Shown here: positions 20,974 to 64,000 of the stretch, piece after piece
Numbering within the stretch: position 1 is the stretch's first letter
Layout of the letters: each line of letters begins with the position of its first letter
Origin: TPA_inf: Saccharomyces
Taxonomy: Eukaryota
NCBI GenBank assembly: GCA_000146045.2
Contig: BK006938.2
Location: 960,001 to 1,024,000, forward strand
Direction of reading: 5' to 3'
DNA length: 64,000 nt
Position numbers and translations under genes: made by a program
Notes under the pieces: generated by a model
The model's input: the letters and a program-made list of their open reading frames with translations, nothing else
Told to the model about the DNA's origin: nothing
The model's database searches: none

Positions 20974-21055
20974 CGACAACTGCAGGACTCGAACCTGCGC
21001 GGGCAAAGCCCAAAAGATTTCTAATCTTTCGCCTTAACCACTCGGCCAAGTTGCC
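20974..21055 (-). tRNA. tS(AGA): tRNA-Ser (anticodon AGA)
   Basis: The reverse complement reads GGCAACTTGGCCGAGTGGTTAAGGCGAAAGATTAGAAATCTTTTGGGCTTTGCCCGCGCAGGTTCGAGTCCTGCAGTTGTCG. It has a long variable arm, a T-loop GGTTCGAGTCC and an AGA anticodon. Confidence 0.9.
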
Positions 21056-21143
21056 TCAATTTACAAGTAATTTGAATATTATTAGATAGTATGATGCAGT
21101 ATTATGACACACATCTAAACGTTAATAAAACACACATGCAACT

Positions 21144-21170
21144 TGTTGGAATAAAAATCCACTATCGTCT
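21144..21170 (+). repeat. 5' fragment (27 bp) of an older solo delta LTR, split by the Ty2 insertion
   Basis: TGTTGGAATAAAAATCCACTATCGTCT is an LTR start. It continues at 27135-27149 and again at 32643 onward (see findings). Confidence 0.7.
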
Positions 21171-21461
21171 TGTTGGAATAAAAATCAACTATCATCTACT
21201 AACTAGTATTTACGTTACTAGTATATTATCATATACGGTGTTAGAAGATGACGCAAATGATGAGAAATAGTCATCTAAATTAGTGGAAGCTGAAACGCAA
21301 GGATTGATAATGTAATAGGATCAATGAATATTAACATATAAAATGATGATAATAATATTTATAGAATTGTATAGAATTGCAGATTCCCTTTTATGGATTC
21401 CTAAATCCTCGAGGAGAACTTCTAGTATATCTACATACCTAATATTATAGCCTTAATCACA

Positions 21462-22778
21462 ATGGAATCCCAACAATTACATCAAAATCCACATTCTCTA
21501 CATGGTAGCGCCGCTGCTTCGGTTACTTCTAAGGAAGTCCCATCAAATCAAGATCCGTTAGCCGTTTCAGCTTCCAATTTACCGGAATTTGATAGAGATT
21601 CCACTAAGGTTAATTCTCAACAAGAGACAACACCTGGGACATCAGCTGTTCCAGAGAACCATCATCATGTCTCTCCTCAACCTGCTTCAGTACCACCTCC
21701 ACAGAATGGACAGTACCAACAGCACGGCATGATGACCCCAAACAAAGCTATGGCCTCTAACTGGGCACATTACCAACAACCATCTATGATGACGTGTTCA
21801 CATTATCAAACGTCACCTGCGTATTATCAACCGGACCCACACTATCCGCTGCCACAGTATATCCCACCGCTGAGTACTTCCTCACCTGATCCAATCGATT
21901 CACAGAATCAACACTCTGAAGTACCTCAAGCTAAGACAAAGGTGAGAAATAACGTCTTACCACCACACACTTTAACATCAGAAGAAAACTTTTCTACATG
22001 GGTTAAATTTTACATCAGATTTTTGAAGAACTCTAATCTCGGTGACATAATTCCAAATGACCAGGGTGAAATCAAAAGACAAATGACTTATGAAGAACAT
22101 GCGTATATATACAATACCTTCCAAGCATTTGCCCCATTTCATTTATTGCCAACATGGGTAAAACAAATTTTAGAAATTAATTATGCTGACATCCTTACAG
22201 TCCTTTGTAAAAGTGTGTCCAAAATGCAAACTAACAATCAAGAATTAAAGGATTGGATAGCTCTTGCCAACCTTGAGTACGACGGAAGTACATCTGCTGA
22301 TACATTTGAAATTACAGTCAGTACGATCATTCAGAGGCTAAAAGAAAACAATATCAATGTTAGCGACAGATTGGCCTGTCAACTAATACTTAAAGGTCTA
22401 TCCGGTGATTTCAAATACCTACGTAATCAATATCGTACCAAAACGAACATGAAACTTTCCCAATTATTCGCTGAAATTCAATTAATATATGACGAAAATA
22501 AAATCATGAATCTAAATAAACCGTCCCAATACAAACAACACAGCGAATACAAAAATGTTTCTCGCACATCTCCAAACACGACTAACACGAAGGTTACAAG
22601 TCGTAATTATCATAGAACAAATAGTTCAAAACCAAGAGCAGCAAAAGCTCACAATATTGCTACATCCAGTAAATTCTCAAGGGTGAACAATGATCACATT
22701 AATGAATCAACCGTTTCATCACAATACTTAAGCGATGACAACGAACTTAGTCTTAGGCCAGCAACAGAAAGAATCTAA
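21462..22778 (+). CDS. Ty2 TYA (Gag), 438 aa
   Basis: [26 protein letters not shown]... The ATG lies inside the 5' LTR. 438 aa is typical of Ty2 (Ty1 is 440). Confidence 0.9.
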
Positions 22779-25700
22779 GCCAACACGCACAATAGACTCG
22801 AATGACGAACTACCTGATCACCTTCTTATTGATTCAGGAGCTTCGCAAACGCTTGTCAGATCAGCCCATTATTTACACCATGCAACACCCAATTCTGAAA
22901 TAAACATAGTCGATGCTCAAAAACAAGACATTCCTATAAATGCCATTGGTAATCTTCACTTCAACTTTCAGAACGGCACCAAAACATCAATAAAAGCACT
23001 ACACACACCAAACATAGCCTATGATCTATTAAGTTTGAGTGAGCTGGCTAACCAAAATATTACTGCCTGCTTTACCAGAAACACTTTAGAAAGATCGGAT
23101 GGTACAGTACTAGCTCCCATAGTCAAACATGGAGACTTTTACTGGTTATCTAAAAAATACCTAATTCCTTCGCACATTTCAAAGCTAACAATAAACAACG
23201 TCAACAAAAGCAAAAGCGTAAATAAATATCCATATCCGTTAATACATCGAATGCTTGGACATGCTAACTTCCGAAGTATTCAGAAGTCTCTTAAGAAGAA
23301 TGCAGTTACATATTTGAAAGAATCGGATATTGAATGGTCTAACGCTAGCACATATCAATGTCCTGACTGTCTAATCGGCAAAAGCACGAAACATAGGCAT
23401 ATCAAAGGATCACGACTAAAGTACCAAGAATCATATGAGCCTTTTCAGTACTTGCATACCGATATATTTGGTCCTGTACATCACTTACCGAAAAGTGCAC
23501 CTTCTTACTTTATATCGTTTACAGATGAGAAAACCAGATTCCAATGGGTCTACCCATTACACGACCGTCGTGAAGAATCTATCCTCAATGTTTTTACATC
23601 GATATTAGCATTTATTAAGAACCAATTCAATGCTCGCGTTCTAGTTATCCAGATGGATCGTGGCTCCGAGTACACTAACAAAACTCTTCATAAGTTCTTT
23701 ACGAACAGAGGTATTACTGCATGCTATACAACCACGGCAGATTCTAGAGCACACGGTGTCGCTGAACGATTAAATCGTACTTTATTAAACGATTGTCGCA
23801 CACTGCTTCATTGCAGTGGTCTACCAAATCATCTATGGTTCTCAGCAGTCGAATTTTCTACTATAATCAGAAATTCATTAGTCTCACCAAAAAACGATAA
23901 ATCTGCAAGACAACATGCAGGTTTAGCTGGACTGGACATTACTACTATACTACCTTTCGGTCAACCGGTTATAGTTAACAACCATAATCCCGACTCGAAA
24001 ATACATCCTCGTGGCATTCCAGGTTACGCCTTACATCCGTCACGAAACTCTTATGGCTATATTATCTATCTTCCATCATTAAAAAAGACAGTAGATACTA
24101 CCAATTACGTTATATTACAAGACAACCAATCCAAATTGGACCAATTCAATTATGATACACTCACCTTTGATGATGATCTCAATCGTTTAACAGCCCATAA
24201 CCAATCTTTTATTGAACAAAATGAAACGGAGCAGTCATATGATCAAAATACAGAATCTGATCATGACTATCAATCGGAGATTGAAATAAACTCTGATCCT
24301 CTAGTGAACGATTTCTCGTCCCAATCATTGAACCCTTTACAATTAGACAAGGAACCAGTCCAAAAGGTACGTGCACCAAAAGAAGTTGATGCCGACATAT
24401 CTGAATACAATATTCTTCCATCTACTATACGATCTCGTACACCCCATATCATTAATAAAGAGAGTACCGAAATGGGTGGTACCATTGAATCAGATACTAC
24501 TTCACCTAGACACTCGTCTACCTTCACTGCACGAAACCAAAAGCGACCTGGTAGTCCCAACGATATGATTGATTTGACCTCACAGGATAGAGTTAATTAT
24601 GGACTTGAAAACATCAAAACTACACGTTTGGGTGGTACGGAGGAACCATATATTCAACGAAATAGTGATACAAATATCAAATACAGGACTACAAATAGTA
24701 CGCCCTCAATAGATGACCGTTCGTCCAACAGTGAATCCACTACTCCCATCATCTCCATAGAAACAAAGGCTGTATGTGATAATACACCCTCCATTGATAC
24801 GGATCCGCCAGAATATCGATCTTCTGACCATGCGACTCCTAATATAATGCCTGACAAATCCTCAAAAAATGTTACGGCTGATTCTATTCTTGACGACCTC
24901 CCACTTCCTGACTTAACTAATAAATCTCCTACGGACACTTCTGATGTTTCAAAAGATATTCCACACATACACTCTCGTCAGACTAATTCCAGTTTGGGTG
25001 GTATGGATGATTCTAATGTTCTGACTACTACCAAAAGTAAGAAAAGATCATTAGAAGATAATGAAACTGAAATTGAGGTATCCCGAGACACATGGAATAA
25101 TAAGAATATGAGAAGTCTGGAACCACCAAGATCGAAGAAACGCATAAATTTAATTGCAGCAATAAAAGGAGTGAAATCGATCAAACCAGTTCGAACGACC
25201 TTAAGATATGATGAAGCAATTACATATAATAAAGACAACAAAGAAAAAGACAGATATGTTGAAGCTTATCATAAAGAAATTAGCCAACTATTGAAAATGA
25301 ACACTTGGGATACAAACAAATATTATGATAGAAATGACATAGATCCTAAAAAAGTAATAAACTCAATGTTTATATTTAACAAGAAACGTGATGGTACACA
25401 CAAAGCTAGATTTGTTGCAAGAGGCGACATTCAACACCCCGATACATATGATTCTGATATGCAATCCAATACCGTACATCACTATGCACTGATGACGTCA
25501 TTGTCAATCGCATTAGACAATGACTATTATATCACACAGCTGGACATATCCTCTGCTTACTTATATGCTGATATCAAAGAAGAATTATACATAAGACCTC
25601 CACCACATTTAGGTTTGAATGATAAGTTACTACGTTTGAGAAAATCACTCTATGGTTTGAAACAAAGTGGTGCAAACTGGTATGAAACCATTAAATCATA

Positions 25701-26775
25701 TTTAATAAATTGTTGCGACATGCAAGAAGTTCGCGGATGGTCATGCGTATTTAAGAATAGTCAAGTAACAATTTGCTTATTCGTTGATGATATGATATTA
25801 TTCAGCAAAGACTTAAATGCAAATAAGAAAATCATAACAACACTCAAGAAACAATACGATACAAAGATAATAAATCTGGGTGAAGGTGATAACGAAATTC
25901 AGTACGACATACTTGGATTAGAGATCAAATATCAAAGAAGCAAGTACATGAAATTAGGTATGGAAAAATCCTTGACAGAAAAATTACCCAAACTAAACGT
26001 ACCTTTGAACCCAAAAGGAAAGAAACTTAGAGCTCCAGGTCAACCAGGTCATTATATAGACCAGGATGAACTAGAAATAGATGAAGATGAATACAAAGAG
26101 AAAGTGCATGAAATGCAAAAGTTGATTGGTCTAGCTTCATATGTTGGATATAAATTTAGATTTGACTTACTATACTACATCAACACACTTGCTCAACATA
26201 TACTATTCCCCTCTAGGCAAGTTTTAGACATGACATATGAATTGATACAGTTCATATGGAATACGAGAGATAAGCAATTAATATGGCACAAAAGCAAACC
26301 TGTTAAGCCAACAAATAAATTAGTTGTTATAAGCGATGCATCGTATGGTAACCAACCGTATTATAAATCACAAATTGGCAACATATATTTACTTAATGGA
26401 AAAGTGATTGGAGGAAAGTCGACAAAGGCTTCGTTAACATGCACTTCAACTACAGAAGCAGAAATACACGCAGTCAGTGAAGCTATACCGCTATTGAATA
26501 ACCTCAGTCACCTTGTGCAAGAACTTAACAAGAAACCAATTATTAAAGGCTTACTTACTGATAGTAGATCAACGATCAGTATAATTAAGTCTACAAATGA
26601 AGAGAAATTTAGAAACAGATTTTTTGGCACAAAGGCAATGAGACTTAGAGATGAAGTATCAGGTAATAATTTATACGTATACTACATCGAGACCAAGATG
26701 AACATTGCTGATGTGATGACAAAACCTCTTCCGATAAAAACATTTAAACTATTAACTAACAAATGGATTCATTAG
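22752..26775 (+). CDS. Ty2 TYB (Pol: protease-integrase-RT-RNase H), expressed as a TYA-TYB fusion by +1 frameshift
   Basis: CTT-AGG-C slippery heptamer at 22752-22758 in the TYA frame. The +1 frame stays open to 26775. Integrase HHCC/DDE and RT YVDD (FVDDM) motifs are present. Confidence 0.85.
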
Positions 26776-27134
26776 ATCTATTACATTATGGGTGGTATGT
26801 TGGAATAAAAATCAACTATCATCTACTAACTAGTATTTACGTTACTAGTATATTATCATATACGGTGTTAGAAGATGACGCAAATGATGAGAAATAGTCA
26901 TCTAAATTAGTGGAAGCTGAAACGCAAGGATTGATAATGTAATAGGATCAATGAATATTAACATATAAAATGATGATAATAATATTTATAGAATTGTATA
27001 GAATTGCAGATTCCCTTTTATGGATTCCTAAATCCTCGAGGAGAACTTCTAGTATATCTACATACCTAATATTATAGCCTTAATCACAATGGAATCCCAA
27101 CAATTACATCAAAATCCACATTCTCTACACGTCT

Positions 27135-27149
27135 ATCAACTAATAGTTA
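27135..27149 (+). repeat. Middle fragment (15 bp) of the older solo delta, lying between the Ty2 and Ty1 insertions
   Basis: ATCAACTAATAGTTA continues the LTR sequence that was interrupted at 21170. Confidence 0.65.
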
Positions 27150-27533
27150 TGAGATATATGTGGGTAATTAGATAATTGTTGGGATTCCATTGTTGATAAA
27201 GGCTATAATATTAGGTATACAGAATATACTAGAAGTTCTCCTCGAGGATTTAGGAATCCATAAAAGGGAATCTGCAATTCTACACAATTCTATAAATATT
27301 ATTATCATCGTTTTATATGTTAATATTCATTGATCCTATTACATTATCAATCCTTGCGTTTCAGCTTCCACTAATTTAGATGACTATTTCTCATCATTTG
27401 CGTCATCTTCTAACACCGTATATGATAATATACTAGTAACGTAAATACTAGTTAGTAGATGATAGTTGATTTTTATTCCAACATACCACCCATAATGTAA
27501 TAGATCTAATGAATCCATTTGTTTGTTAATAGT

Positions 27534-30500
27534 TTAAATGTTTTTATCGGAAGAGGTTTTGTGTTTGTGCCATATTAATTGTTTATCTCTAGTGTCCCAC
27601 ATGAATTGTATTAACTCATATGTCATGTCTAAAACTTGCCTAGAGGGGAATAGTATATGTTGAGCAAGTGTGTTGATGTAGTATAGTAAGTCAAATCTAA
27701 ATTTATATCCAACATATGAAGCTAGACCAATCAACTTTTGCATTTCATGTACCTTCTCTTTGTATTCATCTTCATCTATTTCTAGTTCATCCTGGTCTAT
27801 ATAAAGACCTGGTTGACCTGGAGCGCTAAGTTTTCTTCCTTTTGGATTCAAAGGTACGTTTAATTTGGGTATTTTCTCAGTTAATGAGTTTTCCATACCT
27901 AATTTCATGTATTTACCTCTTTGATATTTGATTTCTAAGCCAAGTATGTCATATTGAATTTCCTCATCACTTTCGCCTAGATTTATAATCTTGGTGTCGT
28001 ATTGCATCTTAAGCTTCTCTATAATTCTTTTGTTTGAATTTAGATTTTTGCTAAACAATACCATATCATCTACGAATAAACAAATTGTCACTTGACTGTT
28101 TTTAAATACGCATGACCATCCACGAACTTCTTCCATACCACATTGTTGTATCAGGTATGATTTGATAGTTTCGTACCAGTTCGCTCCACTTTGTTTCAAT
28201 CCATAAAGTGATTTCTTCAAACGTATCAACTTATCATTCATTCCTAAATGTGGTGGAGGTCTTATGTATAATTCTTCTTTGATGTCTGCATACAAATATG
28301 CCGAAGATATGTCTAATTGTGTAATATAGTAGTTATTGTCTAATGCAAGTGACAGGGATGTCATTAATGCATAGTGATGTACGGTATTGGATTGCATGCC
28401 TGAGTCGTAAGTGTCAGGATGCTGAATATCACCTCTTGCAACAAATCTAGCTTTATGAGTACCGTCACGTTTCTTGTTGAAGATAAACATTGAGTTTATT
28501 ACTCTTTTAGGGTCTATTTCTTTTCTGTCATAATATTCGTCAGTGTCCCAAGTTTTCATCTTCAACAGTTGATTGACTTCTTTGTGGTATGCCTCGATAT
28601 ATTTTTCTTTTTCTTTAATATCTTTATTATAGGTGATTGCCTCATCGTATCGTAAGGTTGTCCGTATTGGTTTGATTGATTTTACTGCTTTTACAGCTGC
28701 AATCAGGTGAATTCGTTTCTTCGATCTCGGAGGTTCTAAACTACGCATATTCTTAGTATTCCATGTGTCTCGTGATACCTTAATTTCAGTTTCATTATCT
28801 TCTAATGATCTTTTCTTACTGTTGATAGTAGTATAGGCATTAGAGTCACCAATACCACCCAAACTGGAATTAGTTTGACGAGAATTTATCGGTGGGAGTT
28901 CTTTAAATGGGTCAGGGAATTCGGTAGGAGATTCTGGAGGTAGATCAGGGAGTGGGAGATCAGCGATGATAGATTCCTCGGTATTCTGTTCAGAAACAGT
29001 AGTTGGCGTTTTGATAGGAACAATATTGTGCGATGAATTATTTTCCGGTGGAGAAGCATCGATTGAAGGTGAACGGTGTATAATCCTTTTCTCAGTCTCT
29101 TGGTCACTTATCTGCGGAACAGTTTTGTTGTTGGTACCACCCGTACTGGATATTGGTACGTTTGTATGATTAGTCTCATTTTCACTGTACGAGTCTGAGT
29201 GTCTGAAATCTTTAGATTTACTGGCGTGCGACGACTCATGTGTGTTAGATTGGGACATGGGAGCAAGTAAAGGAACATTTAATTTATGCATACCACCCGA
29301 ACCGGTACTCTCGATATTGGAAATTTGGGGGGTGCTAGATCTCTTCTTTGATGGAAGAATATTAGATTCAGATATGTTGGGGTCAACTTCTCTGGGTGCG
29401 CGAATATTGGTTTTAGAAACACGTTTCGAATCTTCAGTATGAGTTGACGGAGGTGTGGAATCGGTTGGACTCACAGCTTTTGAAAGGACATTTCTCGGTT
29501 GCTCAGGATGTAGTTCAATGTCGGATTGGAAGTCATGGTCAGATTCTATGTTAAGATCATTGGATTCTTGGATCTCATTTGACGCAATGAACGAATGATA
29601 TGAAGCAGTTAAACGGTTTAAGTCTTCATCGAAAGTGAGTGCGTCGTAATTGAATTGATCTAATCTGGATTCCTTGCCCTGAAGAATAACATAGTTAGTT
29701 GTATCTACTGTCTTCTTTAAGGATGGAAGATAGATGATATATCCATAAGAGTTTCGAGACGGATGTAGAGCGTAGCCTGGGATGCCACGAGGATGTATTT
29801 TGGAGTTAGGGTTGTGATCATTGACGATAACAGGTTGACCGAAAGGTAACAAAGTACTGATATCAAGTCCTGCCAAGCCAGCATGTTGTCTTGCAGATTT
29901 TTTGCTTTTAGGTGAAGCTAGTGAATTTCTCACAATAGTAGAAAATTCGATTGCAGAGAACCATAAATGGTTCGGTAAACCACTACATTGCAGTTGAGTA
30001 CGGCAGTCATCTAATAAGGTACGGTTTAGCCGTTCAGCGACTCCATGTGCTCGGGAATCCGCTGTGGTTGTATAGCATGGAGTTATACCATTTTTTTCAA
30101 GGAATTTATGGAGAGTTCTGTTAGTATACTCAGAACCACGGTCCATTTGTATAACCAAGACACTGGCCTGAAACTGGTTTTTAATAAAAGCTAGTATCGT
30201 AGTAAAAACATCGAGGATAGAGTCCTCGCGACGGTCGTGTAATGGATAAACCCAACGGAATTTTGTTGTCTCATCAGTAAATGAGATGAAATAGGATGGT
30301 GCACTATTTGGTAGGTTGTGAACTGGACCAAATATGTCAGTATGTAGGTATTGAAAGGGTTCGTATGAATTTTGGTATTTTAGTCGTGAACCTTTGATAT
30401 GTCTGTGTTTGGTGCTTTTGCCGATTAAACAATCAGGACATTGATAGTCAATAGCACTAGACCAGTCGACATCTGATTCGTTAAAATACGTGATGGTGTT

Positions 30501-31046
30501 ATTTTTAAGTGAGTATCGAATTGTCTGTGCATTGGCATGCGCAAGCATTCGATGAATGAAAGGATAAGGATATTTGCGTGTACTTTCACTTGTATGGACA
30601 TTATTGATGGTGGGTACGGAGATATTTGATGGAAGCAAGTACTTTTTAGATACCCAGTAAAAGTCTCCATATTTTACGATAGGTGCAAGTACAGTGCCGT
30701 CAGACCGTTCTAAGACGTTTTTGGTAAAGCATGCTGTGATATCTACTGCAGCCAATTCATTCAAACTGAGTAAGTCATAGGCTATGTTAGGAGTGTGCAA
30801 TACCTTTATTGATGTTTTGGTGTTGTCCTGGAAGTGAAATTGTAGGTCACCAATAGCGTTAATTGGTATATTTCTTTTTTGAGCATCAACTACGTTTATG
30901 TCAGGATTAGATGATGCTGAGTGTATGTGATGAGCAGATCTTATAAGGGTTCGTGATGCTCCTGAATCGAGAAGGAGGTGTCCAGGGAGTTCATCATCAG
31001 AATGATTAGTATGATTTACTGTAGATTCAGTAAGTTTCTGGCCTAA
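27534..31046 (-). pseudogene. Ty1 TYB, truncated: an internal ~430-bp deletion removes the RNase H region and shifts the frame
   Basis: CTTAGGC frameshift heptamer at 31040-31046. The frame is open to a stop at 27534, ending ...[14 protein letters not shown]. The intact Ty2 copy continues ...[26 protein letters not shown]... for about 170 more residues. The TTG at 30800 used by the ORF track is not the real start. Confidence 0.8.
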
Positions 31047-32349
31047 GATGAAGGTCGTGCTTATTGTTCAATTGAATCGGTTCAGTAGTTGATTTACTGA
31101 TGGAATCGTTGTCCGTGCTGGGAGAGTTATTAGATGTGGATACATTGTGAGCCCTGGCTGTTTTCGATTTCGAATTATTTGTTTTTTGAGGATTCCGAGC
31201 TATAACTTTGGGTTTGGTTGTATTCGTATAGCTGCGAGAATCATTCTTCTCATCACTCGGATTTCTCCTGTAATTAGGTTTACTGTTTCTCGATCCCTGT
31301 TGTTCTTCATAAATAGCATGGATATCTAAGAACAGTTCAGCGACTGTCATATTTAGATGTCGATGACGTGTGTAGCGTAAAAATTTATATTCGCCAGATA
31401 GACCTCTCATAATTAATTGGCATGCGACCTTGTTATTGATATGAATGCCATTATTGTTCAGTCTGTCGATAATGTTTGTGACTTTTGTTTCAAATGCATC
31501 TGCAGGTGTACTGCCATTATATTGCAAATTTGCCAGGGTCACAATGTCGTTTGCCTCTTGGGTATCAGATTGCATTTTTTCAATACTTTTGGAAAGAATT
31601 TTCATGATATCCGTATAATCAACGGATAGGATGTCTTTGACCCAGGTAGGTAGGAATTGAGAGGGAGCAAATATTTGAAAAGTGTTATACAAGAAGGTGA
31701 GTTCATCATCAGTGATCTGACGTACGGGTTTTCCGTTTACTGTCGGAATAATACCACCGAGATTCGAGTTTTGTAAAAATTTGATGTATGTTTTAACCCA
31801 ATTTGGAAAGTCATTAGGTGAGGTTAACATTGGTGGTGGTCTGACATATTTTTTAGTGGATGTCATATCAGAGTCCGCTGAGGATGAATCAGTAAATGTA
31901 TTACCTGACTCAGGTGATGGAGTGCTCAGAGGCGTTCCAACTGATGATGGATACTGCGGAAACTGTGATTGTGGCCCAGGTGGAAAGTACATAGGCGACA
32001 TTTGATAAGGTGTATACGGAATCATAGATGGGTGTCCGTAAAATGACCAACCAGATGGATTGGCTTGGTTTTGGGTCATCATGCACTGCTGTGGGTACGG
32101 CCCATTCTGTGGAGGTGGTACTGAAGCAGGTTGAGGAGAGGCATGATGGGGGTTCTCTGGAACAGCTGATGAAGCAGGTGTTGTTGTCTGTTGAGAGTTA
32201 GCCTTAGTGGAAGCCTTCTCACATTCTTCTGTTTTGGAAGCTGAAACGTCTAACGGATCTTGATTTGTGTGGACTTCCTTAGAAGTAACCGAAGCACAGG
32301 CGCTACCATGAGAAATGGGTGAATGTTGAGATAATTGTTGGGATTCCAT
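31027..32349 (-). CDS. Ty1 TYA (Gag), 440 aa
   Basis: [42 protein letters not shown]... 440 aa. The ATG lies inside the 5' LTR. Confidence 0.9.
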
Positions 32350-32642
32350 TGTTGATAAAGGCTATAATATTAGGTATACAGAATATACTAGAAGTTCTCC
32401 TCAAGGATTTAGGAATCCATAAAAGGGAATCTGCAATTCTACACAATTCTATAAATATTATTATCATCGTTTTATATGTTAATATTCATTGATCCTATTA
32501 CATTATCAATCCTTGCGTTTCAGCTTCCACTAATTTAGATGACTATTTCTCATCATTTGCGTCATCTTCTAACACCGTATATGATAATATACTAGTAACG
32601 TAAATACTAGTTAGTAGATGATAGTTGATTTTTATTCCAACA

Positions 32643-32826
32643 AGTTATATTATCAATATATTATCATATACGGTGTTAAGATGATGACATAAGTTATGAG
32701 AAGCTATCATCGAAGTTAGAGGAAGCTGAAGTGCAAGAATTGTTTCATATGTGATTTATGAACATTTAGCATGATTTATTGTCATATTGAGGTATGGTAT
32801 GTCGATGATAAAACAAATCCAACAAT
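32643..32826 (+). repeat. 3' portion of the older solo delta LTR (diverged and truncated), directly upstream of tG(GCC)
   Basis: AGTTATATTATCAATATATTATCATATACGGTGTTAAGATGATGACATAAGTTATGAGAAGCT... is colinear with the delta-variant sequence after the 15-bp piece at 27135-27149. It ends in ...AAATCCAACAATT. Confidence 0.7.
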
Positions 32827-32831
32827 TGTGA

Positions 32832-32902
32832 GCGCAAGTGGTTTAGTGGTAAAATCCAACGTTGCCATCGTTGGGCCCCCGGTTCGATTCCGGGCTTGCG
32901 CA
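32832..32902 (+). tRNA. tG(GCC): tRNA-Gly (anticodon GCC)
   Basis: GCGCAAGTGGTTTAGTGGTAAAATCCAACGTTGCCATCGTTGGGCCCCCGGTTCGATTCCGGGCTTGCGCA, followed by a T6 Pol III terminator. Confidence 0.92.
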
Positions 32903-33133
32903 CTTTTTTAGCAACTATTAGCGATCAATATGAAGGGTTTAGAGACTAGGTGCCTGCCTCGCCTACTCAGCATTCGTTCAGTCAATATTTTATATCACCG
33001 TTAATAATGATTAAGCAGTTTTTTTTGTTAATAAATCCGGTCATCGGGCTAACTAATCTTCAAGAACAACTAGACGGTCATCCCCTTTTGCTTCATAACT
33101 TCTCCTTATAATATAAAAACTTACAAAACGACC

Positions 33134-57206: not shown

Positions 57207-57278
57207 CTCCGAAGCGGGGAGTCGAACCCCGGTCTCCACGGTGAGAACGTGATGTGATAGCCGTTACACTACATCGGA
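57207..57278 (-). tRNA. tE(CUC): tRNA-Glu (anticodon CUC)
   Basis: The reverse complement reads TCCGATGTAGTGTAACGGCTATCACATCACGTTCTCACCGTGGAGACCGGGGTTCGACTCCCCGCTTCGGAG. Anticodon loop TTCTCAC, T-loop GGTTCGACTCC. Confidence 0.9.
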
Positions 57279-58169
57279 TTGTACCTTGGTGATAGTTTGA
57301 CCTAAAAGAAACGTTCATTATGTAATGAAGAAAGCCAATTATTCGGTCGCAAATCAAGGTTCTGTTAGGGAATATGATTTTCTTTGACTCTCAATGAGTT
57401 CTCTTATGACTATTTAGGGGCTAAATTATTTGTTATGGCAATATTATTAGGTAGGAAAGATACGACTTTACTGAAATTGTTGGAAATACAAAAAGGAGCA
57501 GATCATTCCACATAATGATATCATTATTCCCTCTTTCATTTAAAAAATCACCGTTTTTATTTTATTAATTATCAGTCTCTGCATTTTCAGATTCTGTTAA
57601 ATTTGATAAATGTTTTTCGCCGTTTATAAAGTATTTTTGCATCATGTATGATAATGTATTAGTAATATGAAAACTGGTGTTATTAATAATCAGTGGTCAG
57701 GATGTAGTATTAGTTTGGAATAAAAGCAAATCTCCTCATGCTATATAAGAGGAATATAGAAAATACAGGCCAGTTGTTCTTATTAAACATGAACATAATA
57801 GTGGGTCTAGCAGTTACTATACATTTAAATTGGCGACTACTATTATTCGTACATTCGACTATAGCAGTATTTCCAATTAATGGATCTTTAACTCAGCTAT
57901 TATACTGTTTGAGTTCCTCGTTTAACATTTCCCTGTCCAACAGGGACTTAAAAGTATGTAGGGTTTGCATTAATATACAGTAGAGACACTTAAATTGTTA
58001 CTATAGTAACTCAAGTTACTATTCGTGAGAATATTGACTTATTATTCTTCATGAATAGTCGATTAGTAATCAAATGAAGTAATCAGATGTGCAATGCGTC
58101 TTTAATGTTTCAGACTGGAGAATGATACGTAGCTACATAATAATCTGGGTACAGTAAACTCAATGATCT

Positions 58170-58490
58170 ATTACCTGAATGATTAATCTGATGCTTGCAA
58201 TATAACAATTCATCTCGTGACATTAACCATAAGAATTACTCTCATCATTGCTATATCGGCAAGGTTTAATATGTCCAGTCGGAGTGTATTTTATATCTCT
58301 TTCTTTTAGAATAAGAATATCTGCTTTTATTCTTAATCAATACTACAACCTAACTACTAACTATCAACACTGTTAATTACGATTCGCTCCAACAAATTTG
58401 GTTTTGTGGATTCTTAAATTCTCGAGAAAAACTTCTAATATATCTTGTATACCAGATACTGTAGCCTTTAGCAACGATAGAATACGAACA
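58170..58490 (+). repeat. Degenerate delta-like solo LTR remnant upstream of tE(CUC)
   Basis: ...TTTTGTGGATTCTTAAATTCTCGAGAAAAACTTCTAATATATCTTGTATACCAGATACTGTAGCCTTTAGCAACGATAGAATACGAACAG aligns at about 75% identity with the 3' third of the Ty1/Ty2 LTR (TTTTATGGATTCCTAAATCCTCGAGGAGAACTTCTAGTATATCTACATACCTAATATTATAGCC...). Boundaries are approximate. Confidence 0.45.
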
Positions 58491-59367
58491 GTTCTCTTAA
58501 AATTCGCCTATTTCTCATACCGTTGCAGATATAACTAAAGTATTGACATTCAGTGACATCTGGCGCTGATATCATTATTTAACACACGTATGTTTGCGTG
58601 GCATTGTCATTTTTAAGAGCAGAGAAAGAAACAATGAGCTACTTGAGTGTGACAAGTTGAAAAGTCCACCAATTTCACGTTGAATTAGGATTCATATATG
58701 AAATTCTAGTCATTAATTAGAATTGTAAGTTTCTGAGCTTTTTTTTCCTAGTAAATTAAACTTGTCTAATACATCCAGTTGTGATGTATTCTATATCTCA
58801 GTTCTACAGTAGCACGAAGTTTCCCGGCCTCTCTATTCAATAAATTCAGCTATCGCTGATTATCAACAGCAGCAACGAATAAAGCATAAAAGAACAGAAA
58901 AATTCTTCTACAAATTTATTCTGTAAAGATTCAGCTTCTTTCGTGAATTTCTAAGTTCATGAGGGGAATTTAAGTATGGCGTTTCTTCGTAGCGCCATTG
59001 TCTTGAGCCAAAATGGAACTCTAAAAATTTTCACGACATTTTACTAGTCAGTAAAGTGAGCATATACATATAAGAAGAAATTTCAAAAGGTAAAAAATGG
59101 AGCAACTTCCAGCTCATTATCTTTTCAATGTTGTCGATGCCATAGTTGGATTATGAAATCTCATATTCATAACCACAACGCGTTTTTTTCCTTTTAAGGC
59201 ACTACAGACTCCATTCTCACAAGTTTGTCAAAAGCACGAGCGCGATGAGAATTAAAGTCAGATCTGGTTAATGATTCTGGTACAACAGCAGAAACAAATC
59301 GAGTACAAATTTAATCTTATTCTGTCGCAATAGTTGACTTTCTTTTCTGGCCTCTCGAACAAAAAGC

Positions 59368-62321: not shown

Positions 62322-62592
62322 CTTGGTGTCAGGTTGAAAAACAATTGCTGTCGTTTTTTTTTAGTTCAACAAGTTTGGTATGGCAGTTGACAAAAATTCT
62401 ATTTGGGCTGCAATGAATCAAAGTGTACAAACATCTGGTGAAATCGTTCAAGTTTTATACTGAATAGAAAACAAAAGATAAGGTTCTGCGCATCGCAAAT
62501 AATAAATTACTAGCGCGCCATACAAGAGACGAGTCTATTTTTTTCCGCCAGACGACACAAAAAAGAACCCGTGCAAATATTATATCCCACCT

Positions 62593-62600
62593 CCCACGTG
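62593..62600. promoter_or_regulatory. High-affinity Pho4-type E-box CACGTGGG (reverse strand) in the PHM6 promoter
   Basis: cccacgtg on the + strand is CACGTGGG on the - strand. PHM6 is transcribed on the - strand and the motif is about 275 bp 5' of the ATG. Confidence 0.55.
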
Positions 62601-63136
62601 TCAGCGAAGCTCGGAACTGCGTAACATTATAGGGCAGAACATCCAAATGGAAAAAGTAATAACACTATTTGCGATGTTAGTGGCCATCCTGCGTCGTTCG
62701 GATAGGTTAGGACGGGCTGATGAATATACGGGTGTAATAAAAATGACACCACGTTATCAGGGTTTTCATGACAGTGCAAACTAATATATGTCATATTATT
62801 TTAAGTGGGCTCATTTATTTACATGTTTATTTTTTATTGTAATTTGCGTATGTATCATTACACGCTAATGCACATTTGCACGTTCTAATAATGAAGGTCG
62901 TCCGTCATAAGCAATTAGGAAATGAGAAATCTTGATTTTATCGCTAAAAAACGCTTTCTCTTGTGGCAGGAGCAGATCTCTTACATATGTAGTTATTTAG
63001 TCGCTTCTAAGAGCCAGATCAGGTGCGTGGATTCATATAATATCCCTTTTTCAATAACAACGTTATAAGGAAACGTTGGGTAAAAGAATATTAATTACTG
63101 AGTGGAACTTTTTCTCATTGTTCTGTGTATATACAA

Positions 63137-63477
63137 TGTTGTATCTCAAAATGAGATATGTCAGTATGACAATACGTCATCCTAAACGTTCATAAAACAC
63201 ATATGAAACAACCTTATAACAAAACGAACAACATGAGATAAAACACGGCCTTCCCTAGCTGAACTACCCAAACGTATAAATGCTTGAACAATCAGTTTAG
63301 ATCCGAGATTCCGCGCTTCCACCACTTAGTATGATTCATATTTTATATAATACATAAGATAAGTAACATTCCGTGAATTAATCTGATAAACCGTTTTGAC
63401 AACTGGTTACTTCCCTAAGACTGTTTATATCAGGATTGTCAAGACACTCCGGTATTACTCGAGCCCGTAATACAACA
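63137..63477 (+). repeat. Ty3 sigma solo LTR (341 bp)
   Basis: TGTTGTATCTCAAAATGAGATATGTCAGTATGACAATACGTCA...CGAGCCCGTAATACAACA is near-identical to canonical sigma end to end. Confidence 0.9.
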
Positions 63478-63510
63478 TACAAAAGTAACTCTTATTTACA
63501 AAAAAATCTC

Positions 63511-64000
63511 TTACTTTGTAGCATCTAGATCATCATTCGTGGGTTCTGAGCAGTAGGAAGAATATTTCTGGTAGAAATGATAAATTTCAAAGCACAGTTC
63601 GAAAGCAATCAGGTATATAATTATCCATTCCAAAAAAGTGCTGTTTCTCTCGTTTAAAAGAGAGATGAGGGCTCGACACTCGTCCGTAGAATAGTCCAGC
63701 TTGCTGTTCAGAATATTTATTCTTGGGCCTATGTCCAAATACCTCGAAACATTTTTAAAAATCTCTTCCAATTGAGGTTCACTCCAATAAAGATCAGGGG
63801 TCTCAATTAGTTCTGAATAGAGGTTCAACTTTCCTCTAATTAGAAAAAGGCGGCCTATTGACTTTAATGCATCACTTGACCTTAGATTTAACTTTGTTCC
63901 CTTAGAAATATTTTCTGTTATTGTTCTGGTCTTTGATATATGTTTTTCCATTGCTTCTTCTAGGACTGCCAAGTTGGTGCTTCTCGATAGCCCACTTGAG
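63511..64000 (-). CDS. C-terminal part of YDR282C; the ORF continues past the window edge
   Basis: Stop at 63511. The reading frame is open to the end of the window. Position matches YDR282C. Confidence 0.6.
   Translation of the reverse strand, partial: SSGLSRSTNLAVLEEAMEKHISKTRTITENISKGTKLNLRSSDALKSIGRLFLIRGKLNLYSELIETPDLYWSEPQLEEIFKNVSRYLDIGPRINILNSKLDYSTDECRALISLLNERNSTFLEWIIIYLIAFELCFEIYHFYQKYSSYCSEPTNDDLDATK

Follow-up and report, generated by a model that had tools for sequence, protein, structure and literature searches.

Nested Ty2 and Ty1 insertions in a delta fragment between divergent tRNA genes on Saccharomyces cerevisiae chromosome IV

We analyzed a 64,000-nt window of chromosome IV of S. 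cerevisiae S288C, in which two Ty retrotransposons, the Ty2 element YDRWTy2-3 and the Ty1 element YDRCTy1-3, interrupt an older Ty1 long terminal repeat (LTR) fragment, or delta, between a tRNA-Ser(AGA) gene, tS(AGA), and a tRNA-Gly(GCC) gene, tG(GCC). All positions given are coordinates of this window. ARAGORN places tS(AGA) at 20974-21055 on the minus strand and tG(GCC) at 32832-32903 on the plus strand, so that the upstream side of the first faces right and that of the second faces left, both toward the insertions; this bears out an initial annotation of the DNA, made from the letters of the sequence, which had described the tRNA genes as divergent. The genes flanking the elements were identified by protein look-up as EXG2 and YDR262W. 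With the two elements taken out, these divergent tRNA genes are 314 bp apart and make a doubly attractive Ty target, and the gap between them very probably preserves successive layers of LTR-retrotransposon integrations.

Orthologous regions (numbered with the prefix L) were retrieved from other S. cerevisiae assemblies via the exact YDR262W and EXG2 proteins, and the alleles sampled are those of about 20 assemblies together with the low-coverage SGRP set. Published TY1-LTR and TY3-LTR reference sequences were those of File S1 of Carr, Bensasson & Bergman 2012 (PMC3511429), whose re-annotation is in sacCer2 coordinates, 3 bp lower than the window coordinate plus 960000.

The Ty2 and Ty1 elements

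The Ty2 element YDRWTy2-3 (Ty2-DR3; chrIV_u8+_TY2 in Carr et al.) is intact and occupies 5959 bp at 21171-27129 on the plus strand. Its two LTRs, at 21171-21502 and 26798-27129, are 332 bp each, have TG...CA ends and are 100% identical. The 5' LTR is directly followed, at 21503, by the primer-binding site TGGTAGCGCC, which is known to pair with initiator tRNA-Met; the same site directly follows the 5' LTR of the Ty1 element, and in both elements a polypurine tract ending GGGTGGTA stands directly before the 3' LTR. TYA (21462-22778) and TYB (22735-26775) overlap, with the +1 frameshift heptamer CTTAGGC at 22752 in the frame overlap, and translation across the frameshift gives a complete Gag-Pol of 1770 aa that matches the S288C protein Q07791 / NP_058146 exactly. 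Pfam matches to the Gag-Pol proteins of the two elements come in the order TYA, Pol_BBD, rve, RVT_2. With their LTRs, 5-bp target-site duplications (TSDs), primer-binding sites, polypurine tracts and TYA/TYB frameshift, both elements carry the hallmarks of Ty1/Ty2 copia-type (Pseudoviridae) retrotransposons. Public databases give Streptococcus uberis or Parabacteroides merdae as the source of some fragments of Ty2 proteins, which most likely reflects yeast contamination of those bacterial assemblies.

The Ty1 element YDRCTy1-3 (Ty1-DR4; chrIV_u9-_TY1 in Carr et al.) occupies 5493 bp at 27150-32642 on the minus strand. Its 3' LTR (27150-27483) and 5' LTR (32309-32642) are 334 bp each, with TG...CA ends, and are identical at 325 of 334 positions. 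TYA lies at 31027-32349, CTTAGGC at 31041-31047 is in the frame overlap, and the open TYB frame extends from 31067 to 27537. The resulting Gag-Pol, an exact match to the S288C protein Q07793 / NP_058148, is 1604 aa long, compared with 1755 aa in other Ty1 copies. Alignment to Ty2 and to the full-length Ty1 of L002 shows that a segment of about 425 bp, bounded by direct repeats of CAAACCT, is missing from the element, with a deletion junction near 27558 (element position ~5085) that shifts the reading frame. Gag-Pol ends upstream of the stretch that reads ISDASYG...TTEAEIHA...TDS...ADVMTK in Ty2, and the RNase H core is therefore absent; since Pfam gave no RNase H match in either element, it is the alignment to Ty2 and to the L002 Ty1 that demonstrates this loss. 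The deletion could have arisen by a template switch in reverse transcription or by a later replication slip.

The nine differences between the two Ty1 LTRs comprise an isolated one at LTR position 240 and eight clustered in the last 20 nt of U5, where 27150-27173 reads ATCTAATTACCCACATATATCTCA and 32309-32332 reads ATCTCAACATTCACCCATTTCTCA. Both U5 variants are present in Ty1 copies of other strains. Because reverse transcription is expected to give identical LTRs, the cluster is better explained by later gene conversion, or by reverse transcription from mixed templates, than by age. The only contigs found to encode the exact Ty1 Gag were short collapsed ones (at most 4.4 kb), which are uninformative on the junctions. 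An intact autonomous Ty1 is ~5.9 kb long, with a complete Pol including RNase H and with identical LTRs, and YDRCTy1-3 departs from this on each count, so the term "full-length" used for it in the initial annotation does not apply, even though both LTRs are present. It is for the presence of both LTRs that Carr et al. class it as "Full".

Insertion of Ty2 and Ty1 into a delta fragment

The LTR ends define the junctions on both sides of each element. The 27 nt at 21144-21170 read TGTTGGAATAAAAATCCACTATCGTCT and the 15 nt at 27135-27149 read ATCAACTAATAGTTA; CGTCT flanks Ty2 at 21166-21170 and 27130-27134, and AGTTA flanks Ty1 at 27145-27149 and 32643-32647. All of these junctions, both pentamer pairs included, read as first annotated. 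Duplications of 5 bp come from staggered 5-bp cleavage by integrase. Their placement has no freedom because the LTR ends fix it, and the joint chance of both pentamer pairs matching is ~1.8e-6 at the base composition of the window. Between the elements lies a spacer at 27130-27149 (plus strand) consisting of CGTCT (27130-27134), ATCAACTAAT and AGTTA (27145-27149), which together are delta positions 23-42. The distance of 15 bp first given for the two elements is thus right in target-site coordinates, while the physical gap is 20 bp.

Excising 21171-27134 and 27150-32647 in silico yields a 314-bp tS(AGA)-tG(GCC) interval, in which the rejoined pieces are colinear with one LTR and retain one TSD copy of each kind. 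A natural empty allele, L006 (GCA_947369955.1), is identical to this product at 314 of 314 positions; L012 and L014 are also empty alleles, with one mismatch each, and CGTCT and AGTTA each occur singly in the empty allele. Colinearity and agreement of the flanking pentamers, the two points on which the initial annotation had staked its reading, are therefore both found. The target site of Ty2 is 111-115 bp upstream of tS(AGA) and that of Ty1 126-130 bp; measured upstream from tG(GCC), the corresponding distances are ~200 and ~185 bp. These distances fit the Ty1/Ty2 target zone: the integrases of Ty1, Ty2 and Ty4 bind RNA polymerase III at its AC40 subunit, and insertion is into nucleosomal DNA within ~1 kb upstream of tRNA genes (PMC7459421).

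The sequence into which the elements inserted is a plus-strand delta fragment. Its left part, 21144-21170, is LTR positions 1-27, the last 5 nt of which are the left Ty2 copy of CGTCT. Its right part, 32643-32742, begins with the right Ty1 copy of AGTTA (32643-32647) and continues with LTR positions 43-137 (32648-32742); this part is chrIV_st46+_TY1 of Carr et al., at 992640-992739 in sacCer2. Rejoined from 21144-21170, 27135-27149 and 32648-32742, the fragment covers LTR positions 1-137 and matches the published TY1-LTR at 100 of the first 100 nt and at 133 of the first 137 nt, with CGTCT at LTR positions 23-27 and AGTTA at 38-42. That the three pieces form one colinear delta accordingly stands as far as LTR position 137, although the delta ends at 32742 and not, as first proposed, at 32826. 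Nor is it a solo delta as described. Such a delta, the product of LTR-LTR recombination, is a complete LTR of ~334 bp with a 5-bp duplication of its own; here only the 5' part of the LTR is present, and its 3' end is missing.

Of the 20 SGRP strains that could be scored, 19 have the delta. A reading of it as an old, diverged LTR was considered and rejected, for its identity of only ~80% to the Ty2 and Ty1 LTRs of the window contrasts with near-identity to the canonical TY1-LTR, to the canonical Ty1 LTRs that full-length elements still carry and to LTRs of other strains. Since it is near-identical to canonical Ty1 delta, divergence cannot date it; its relative age rests on nesting and near-fixation, not on sequence divergence, and on these grounds the proposal that it predates both elements is supported.

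Two retrieved regions from the same assembly (L007 and L017, GCA_947369885.1) carry a Ty2 that is 99.8% identical to that of the window and has the same CGTCT duplication, followed by CGTCTATCAACTAATAGTTATATT, a single uninterrupted AGTTA site. To our knowledge LTR retrotransposons do not excise precisely, and this Ty2-only allele therefore represents an intermediate state in which Ty2 came first; Ty2 most likely integrated before Ty1. BC187 is likewise scored as Ty2-present and Ty1-absent in File S2 of Carr et al., and W303 shares the S288C junction in the SGRP alignment. The element boundaries, both TSDs, the empty allele and the Ty2-only allele are all directly observed, and with a separate TSD for each element they firmly uphold the initial view of two independent integrations into a pre-existing LTR.

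The opposite order, with Ty1 first at AGTTA, Ty2 second and Ty2-only alleles produced by loss of Ty1, is very improbable. It would account for Ty1 LTRs that differ at nine positions beside Ty2 LTRs that are identical, and in the scoring of Carr et al. SK1 has Ty1 but not Ty2. However, loss of Ty1 by LTR-LTR recombination would leave a solo LTR, and L007 and L017 have a clean single AGTTA; eight of the nine LTR differences are clustered and conversion-like; and an allele with Ty1 alone at AGTTA was not seen in the ~20 assemblies and low-coverage SGRP data. SK1 was considered as such an allele and rejected, because the SK1/Y55 junction in the SGRP alignment, CCAACA joined to AATATATT, is that of another insertion, 12 bp further right, as in L008. 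An origin of the pair in one composite event or through Ty recombination or rearrangement, with coincidental pentamer matches, can be set aside as extremely unlikely: Ty elements do often mediate rearrangements at this locus, and complex alleles occur in L005, L013, L016, L018, L019 and L020, but each element has its own perfect 5-bp TSD, with the low joint chance given above, excision reproduces a natural allele exactly, and the Ty2-only intermediate exists.

The same interval has received other insertions. Across the ~20 assemblies there are at least nine distinct integration positions in the 314 bp, at ~111, 114, 118, 126, 138, 162, 182, 190 and 225 bp from tS(AGA), occupied by solo LTRs, by full elements in either orientation and by complex nests. 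Ty or solo-LTR insertions elsewhere in the interval were seen in L002-L005, L008-L010, L013, L015, L016 and L018-L020. L013 has a canonical delta nested in a reversed LTR, and L005 is rearranged, with the old delta in two copies that enclose a partial Ty1.

Sigma remnants and the proposed history

The 89 nt that follow LTR position 137 are not recognizable as delta: compared with delta positions 138-338 they score 19, against 17.6 ± 2.4 for shuffled sequences, 148 of 500 of which score as high. They align instead, on the opposite strand, to the first ~72 nt of the Ty3 LTR, or sigma. This remnant, YDRCsigma4, lies at 32743-32815 on the minus strand and covers sigma 1 to ~72-77. Its score is 69 against the complete sigma of the window (shuffles 18.8 ± 2.7, 0/500 as high) and 59 against the published TY3-LTR (0/300 shuffles as high), and its sigma terminus lies 16 nt upstream of tG(GCC). 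The spacing known for Ty3 LTR termini is ~16-19 bp upstream of the 5' end of the mature tRNA. The Ty3 insertion point is the polymerase III transcription start (PMC7459421), and the position ~7 bp from tG(GCC) that the initial annotation had taken as a Ty1/Ty2 target in fact holds a Ty3-type insertion. That the older sequence is instead a complete, degenerate solo delta reaching the tRNA-Gly gene is hardly credible: a motif, CCAACAATT, near 32819-32827 resembles one near the delta 3' end, but the shuffle comparisons favor sigma over delta and Carr et al. divide the region in the same way, into the st46 Ty1 fragment and YDRCsigma4 (their chrIV_s77-_TY3).

A second, sigma-like remnant lies near tS(AGA), at 21094-21142 on the plus strand, and matches sigma ~22-73. 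In local alignment it scores 43 against the complete sigma of the window (shuffles 19.4 ± 2.9, 0/500 as high) and 36 against the published TY3-LTR (0/300); the opposite strand gives no sigma score. Extrapolation places its terminus at ~21073, ~17 nt from the tS(AGA) 5' end. Both remnants thus combine similarity to TY3-LTR with the spacing of the terminus expected of a sigma, the left terminus being extrapolated. Neither matches Ty3p. The remnant near tS(AGA) has no entry in the re-annotation GFF of Carr et al. The complete sigma used for comparison is a 341-bp LTR at 63137-63477 on the plus strand, with TACAA at 63132-63136 and 63478-63482 as a perfect 5-bp TSD; ARAGORN and Rfam found no tRNA or other polymerase III gene near it in 62500-64000, the window ending at 64000.

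The sigma remnants are mirror images that face each other across the delta, and both stop at sigma ~74-77. They meet the delta at 21142/21144 and 32742/32743, and the delta-sigma junction falls within ~8 nt common to both sequences, AAG(G/A)ATTG. The mirror-image truncation and the shared junction sequence may be a microhomology deletion scar or a coincidence. A more specific version, in which the junction would be a deletion scar from a quasi-palindrome formed by two inverted sigma LTRs, we regard as unlikely; if true, that deletion would be an earlier instance of the kind of instability that the Ty2/Ty1 pair shows today.

We propose the following history for the layered integrations. A Ty3-family element would have integrated ~16-17 bp upstream of each tRNA gene, leaving the sigma remnants. 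A Ty1 would then have integrated into the left sigma and been reduced to its LTR, and a deletion would have joined LTR position 137 to the right sigma. Ty2 next integrated at LTR positions 23-27, duplicating CGTCT, and Ty1, most likely later, 15 bp further on, at positions 38-42 and in the opposite orientation, duplicating AGTTA. Where the initial annotation had counted three successive integrations, the locus in this account records at least five, together with one deletion.

Several points weigh against this account. We infer its early part (two sigmas, a Ty1 in a sigma and a deletion) from remnants only, and the common end of both remnants at sigma ~74-77 is a coincidence under the model. 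Given the number of assemblies and the coverage of the SGRP strains, an allele with Ty1 at AGTTA and no Ty2 may exist at low frequency. Finally, the lesser likeness of the Ty1 LTRs (nine differences, against none in Ty2) would naively make Ty1 the older element, an argument that we discount because eight of the nine lie within 20 nt.

Inverted repeat structure and comparison with known Ty loci

The 3' ends of Ty2 and Ty1 face each other, forming a tail-to-tail inverted repeat with its core at 26719-27562. Its ungapped arms, 26719-27057 and 27224-27562, are 339 nt long and 99% complementary; with gaps the inverted homology extends to 390 nt at ~98%, leaving a spacer of ~66 nt. A second pair of arms, 24873-26298 and 27558-28983, is 1426 nt long and 84% complementary, and is offset by the RNase H deletion.

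The elements, their polymorphism among strains, the targeting of tRNA genes and the hotspot role of the pair are already published. Carr et al. (PMC3511429) list u8+_TY2, u9-_TY1, st46+_TY1 and s77-_TY3, the last being YDRCsigma4, at coordinates that match ours after the 3-bp offset; by their scores both elements are polymorphic and the delta is close to fixation. In their annotation the 27-bp and 15-bp delta pieces are not joined to st46 and the nesting is unannotated. The joining of the delta pieces, the order of Ty2 before Ty1 and the sigma-like remnant near tS(AGA) are not stated in the sources compared, and are refinements of annotation. A literature search on YDR261C-D found nothing relevant. 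What is added by way of correction is a single 137-nt LTR fragment, a Ty2 that was likely first, a Ty1 with mismatched LTRs and no RNase H, and an extra sigma-like remnant. Beyond a tidier annotation the significance is small; the biology is ordinary and well known. For teaching, the interval offers a compact illustration of how Ty elements integrate repeatedly near tRNA genes.

Elsewhere in the window a cluster of LTR fragments at 57550-58520 lies upstream of a tRNA-Glu(CUC) gene (57207-57278), with a delta probe match at 58402-58493; in the re-annotation of Carr et al. the stretch corresponding to 57556-58517 holds pieces of Ty1 and Ty4 LTRs.

The YDRWTy2-3/YDRCTy1-3 pair has been described as the mitotic recombination hotspot HS4 (St Charles & Petes 2013, PMC3616911). 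According to excerpts of that paper, the rise in crossovers and conversions at HS4 was shown experimentally to depend on both repeats, and the hotspot is confined to the homolog with the pair, a pair that YJM789 lacks. In rearrangement screens, the pair was also found at the borders of segmental duplications (PMC3102749). The locus is the same as ours: the excerpts place the inverted pair at 981-992 kb of chromosome IV in S288C/W303, with a spacer of ~25-66 bp, and our measurements, a 66-nt spacer when gaps are allowed in the homology and 20 bp from the end of one element to that of the other, agree with this. The nested reading of the TSDs, the RNase H deletion and the sigma remnants are not spelled out in those excerpts.

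Two further inverted Ty pairs, also with short spacers and known as hotspots or fragile sites, are described in the same excerpts, HS3 (YDRWTy2-2/YDRCTy1-2, at 872 kb on chromosome IV) and FS2 (a Ty1 pair on chromosome III). These are other loci with larger spacers, ~100 bp and ~280 bp respectively. More generally, nested polymerase III-proximal Ty hotspots (Kim et al. 1998, as cited in PMC7459421 and PMC3511429) likewise lie upstream of tRNA genes and arise by integration into earlier LTRs with 5-bp TSDs. The mechanism is the same as here, and the tS(AGA)-tG(GCC) interval is a dense example of it.

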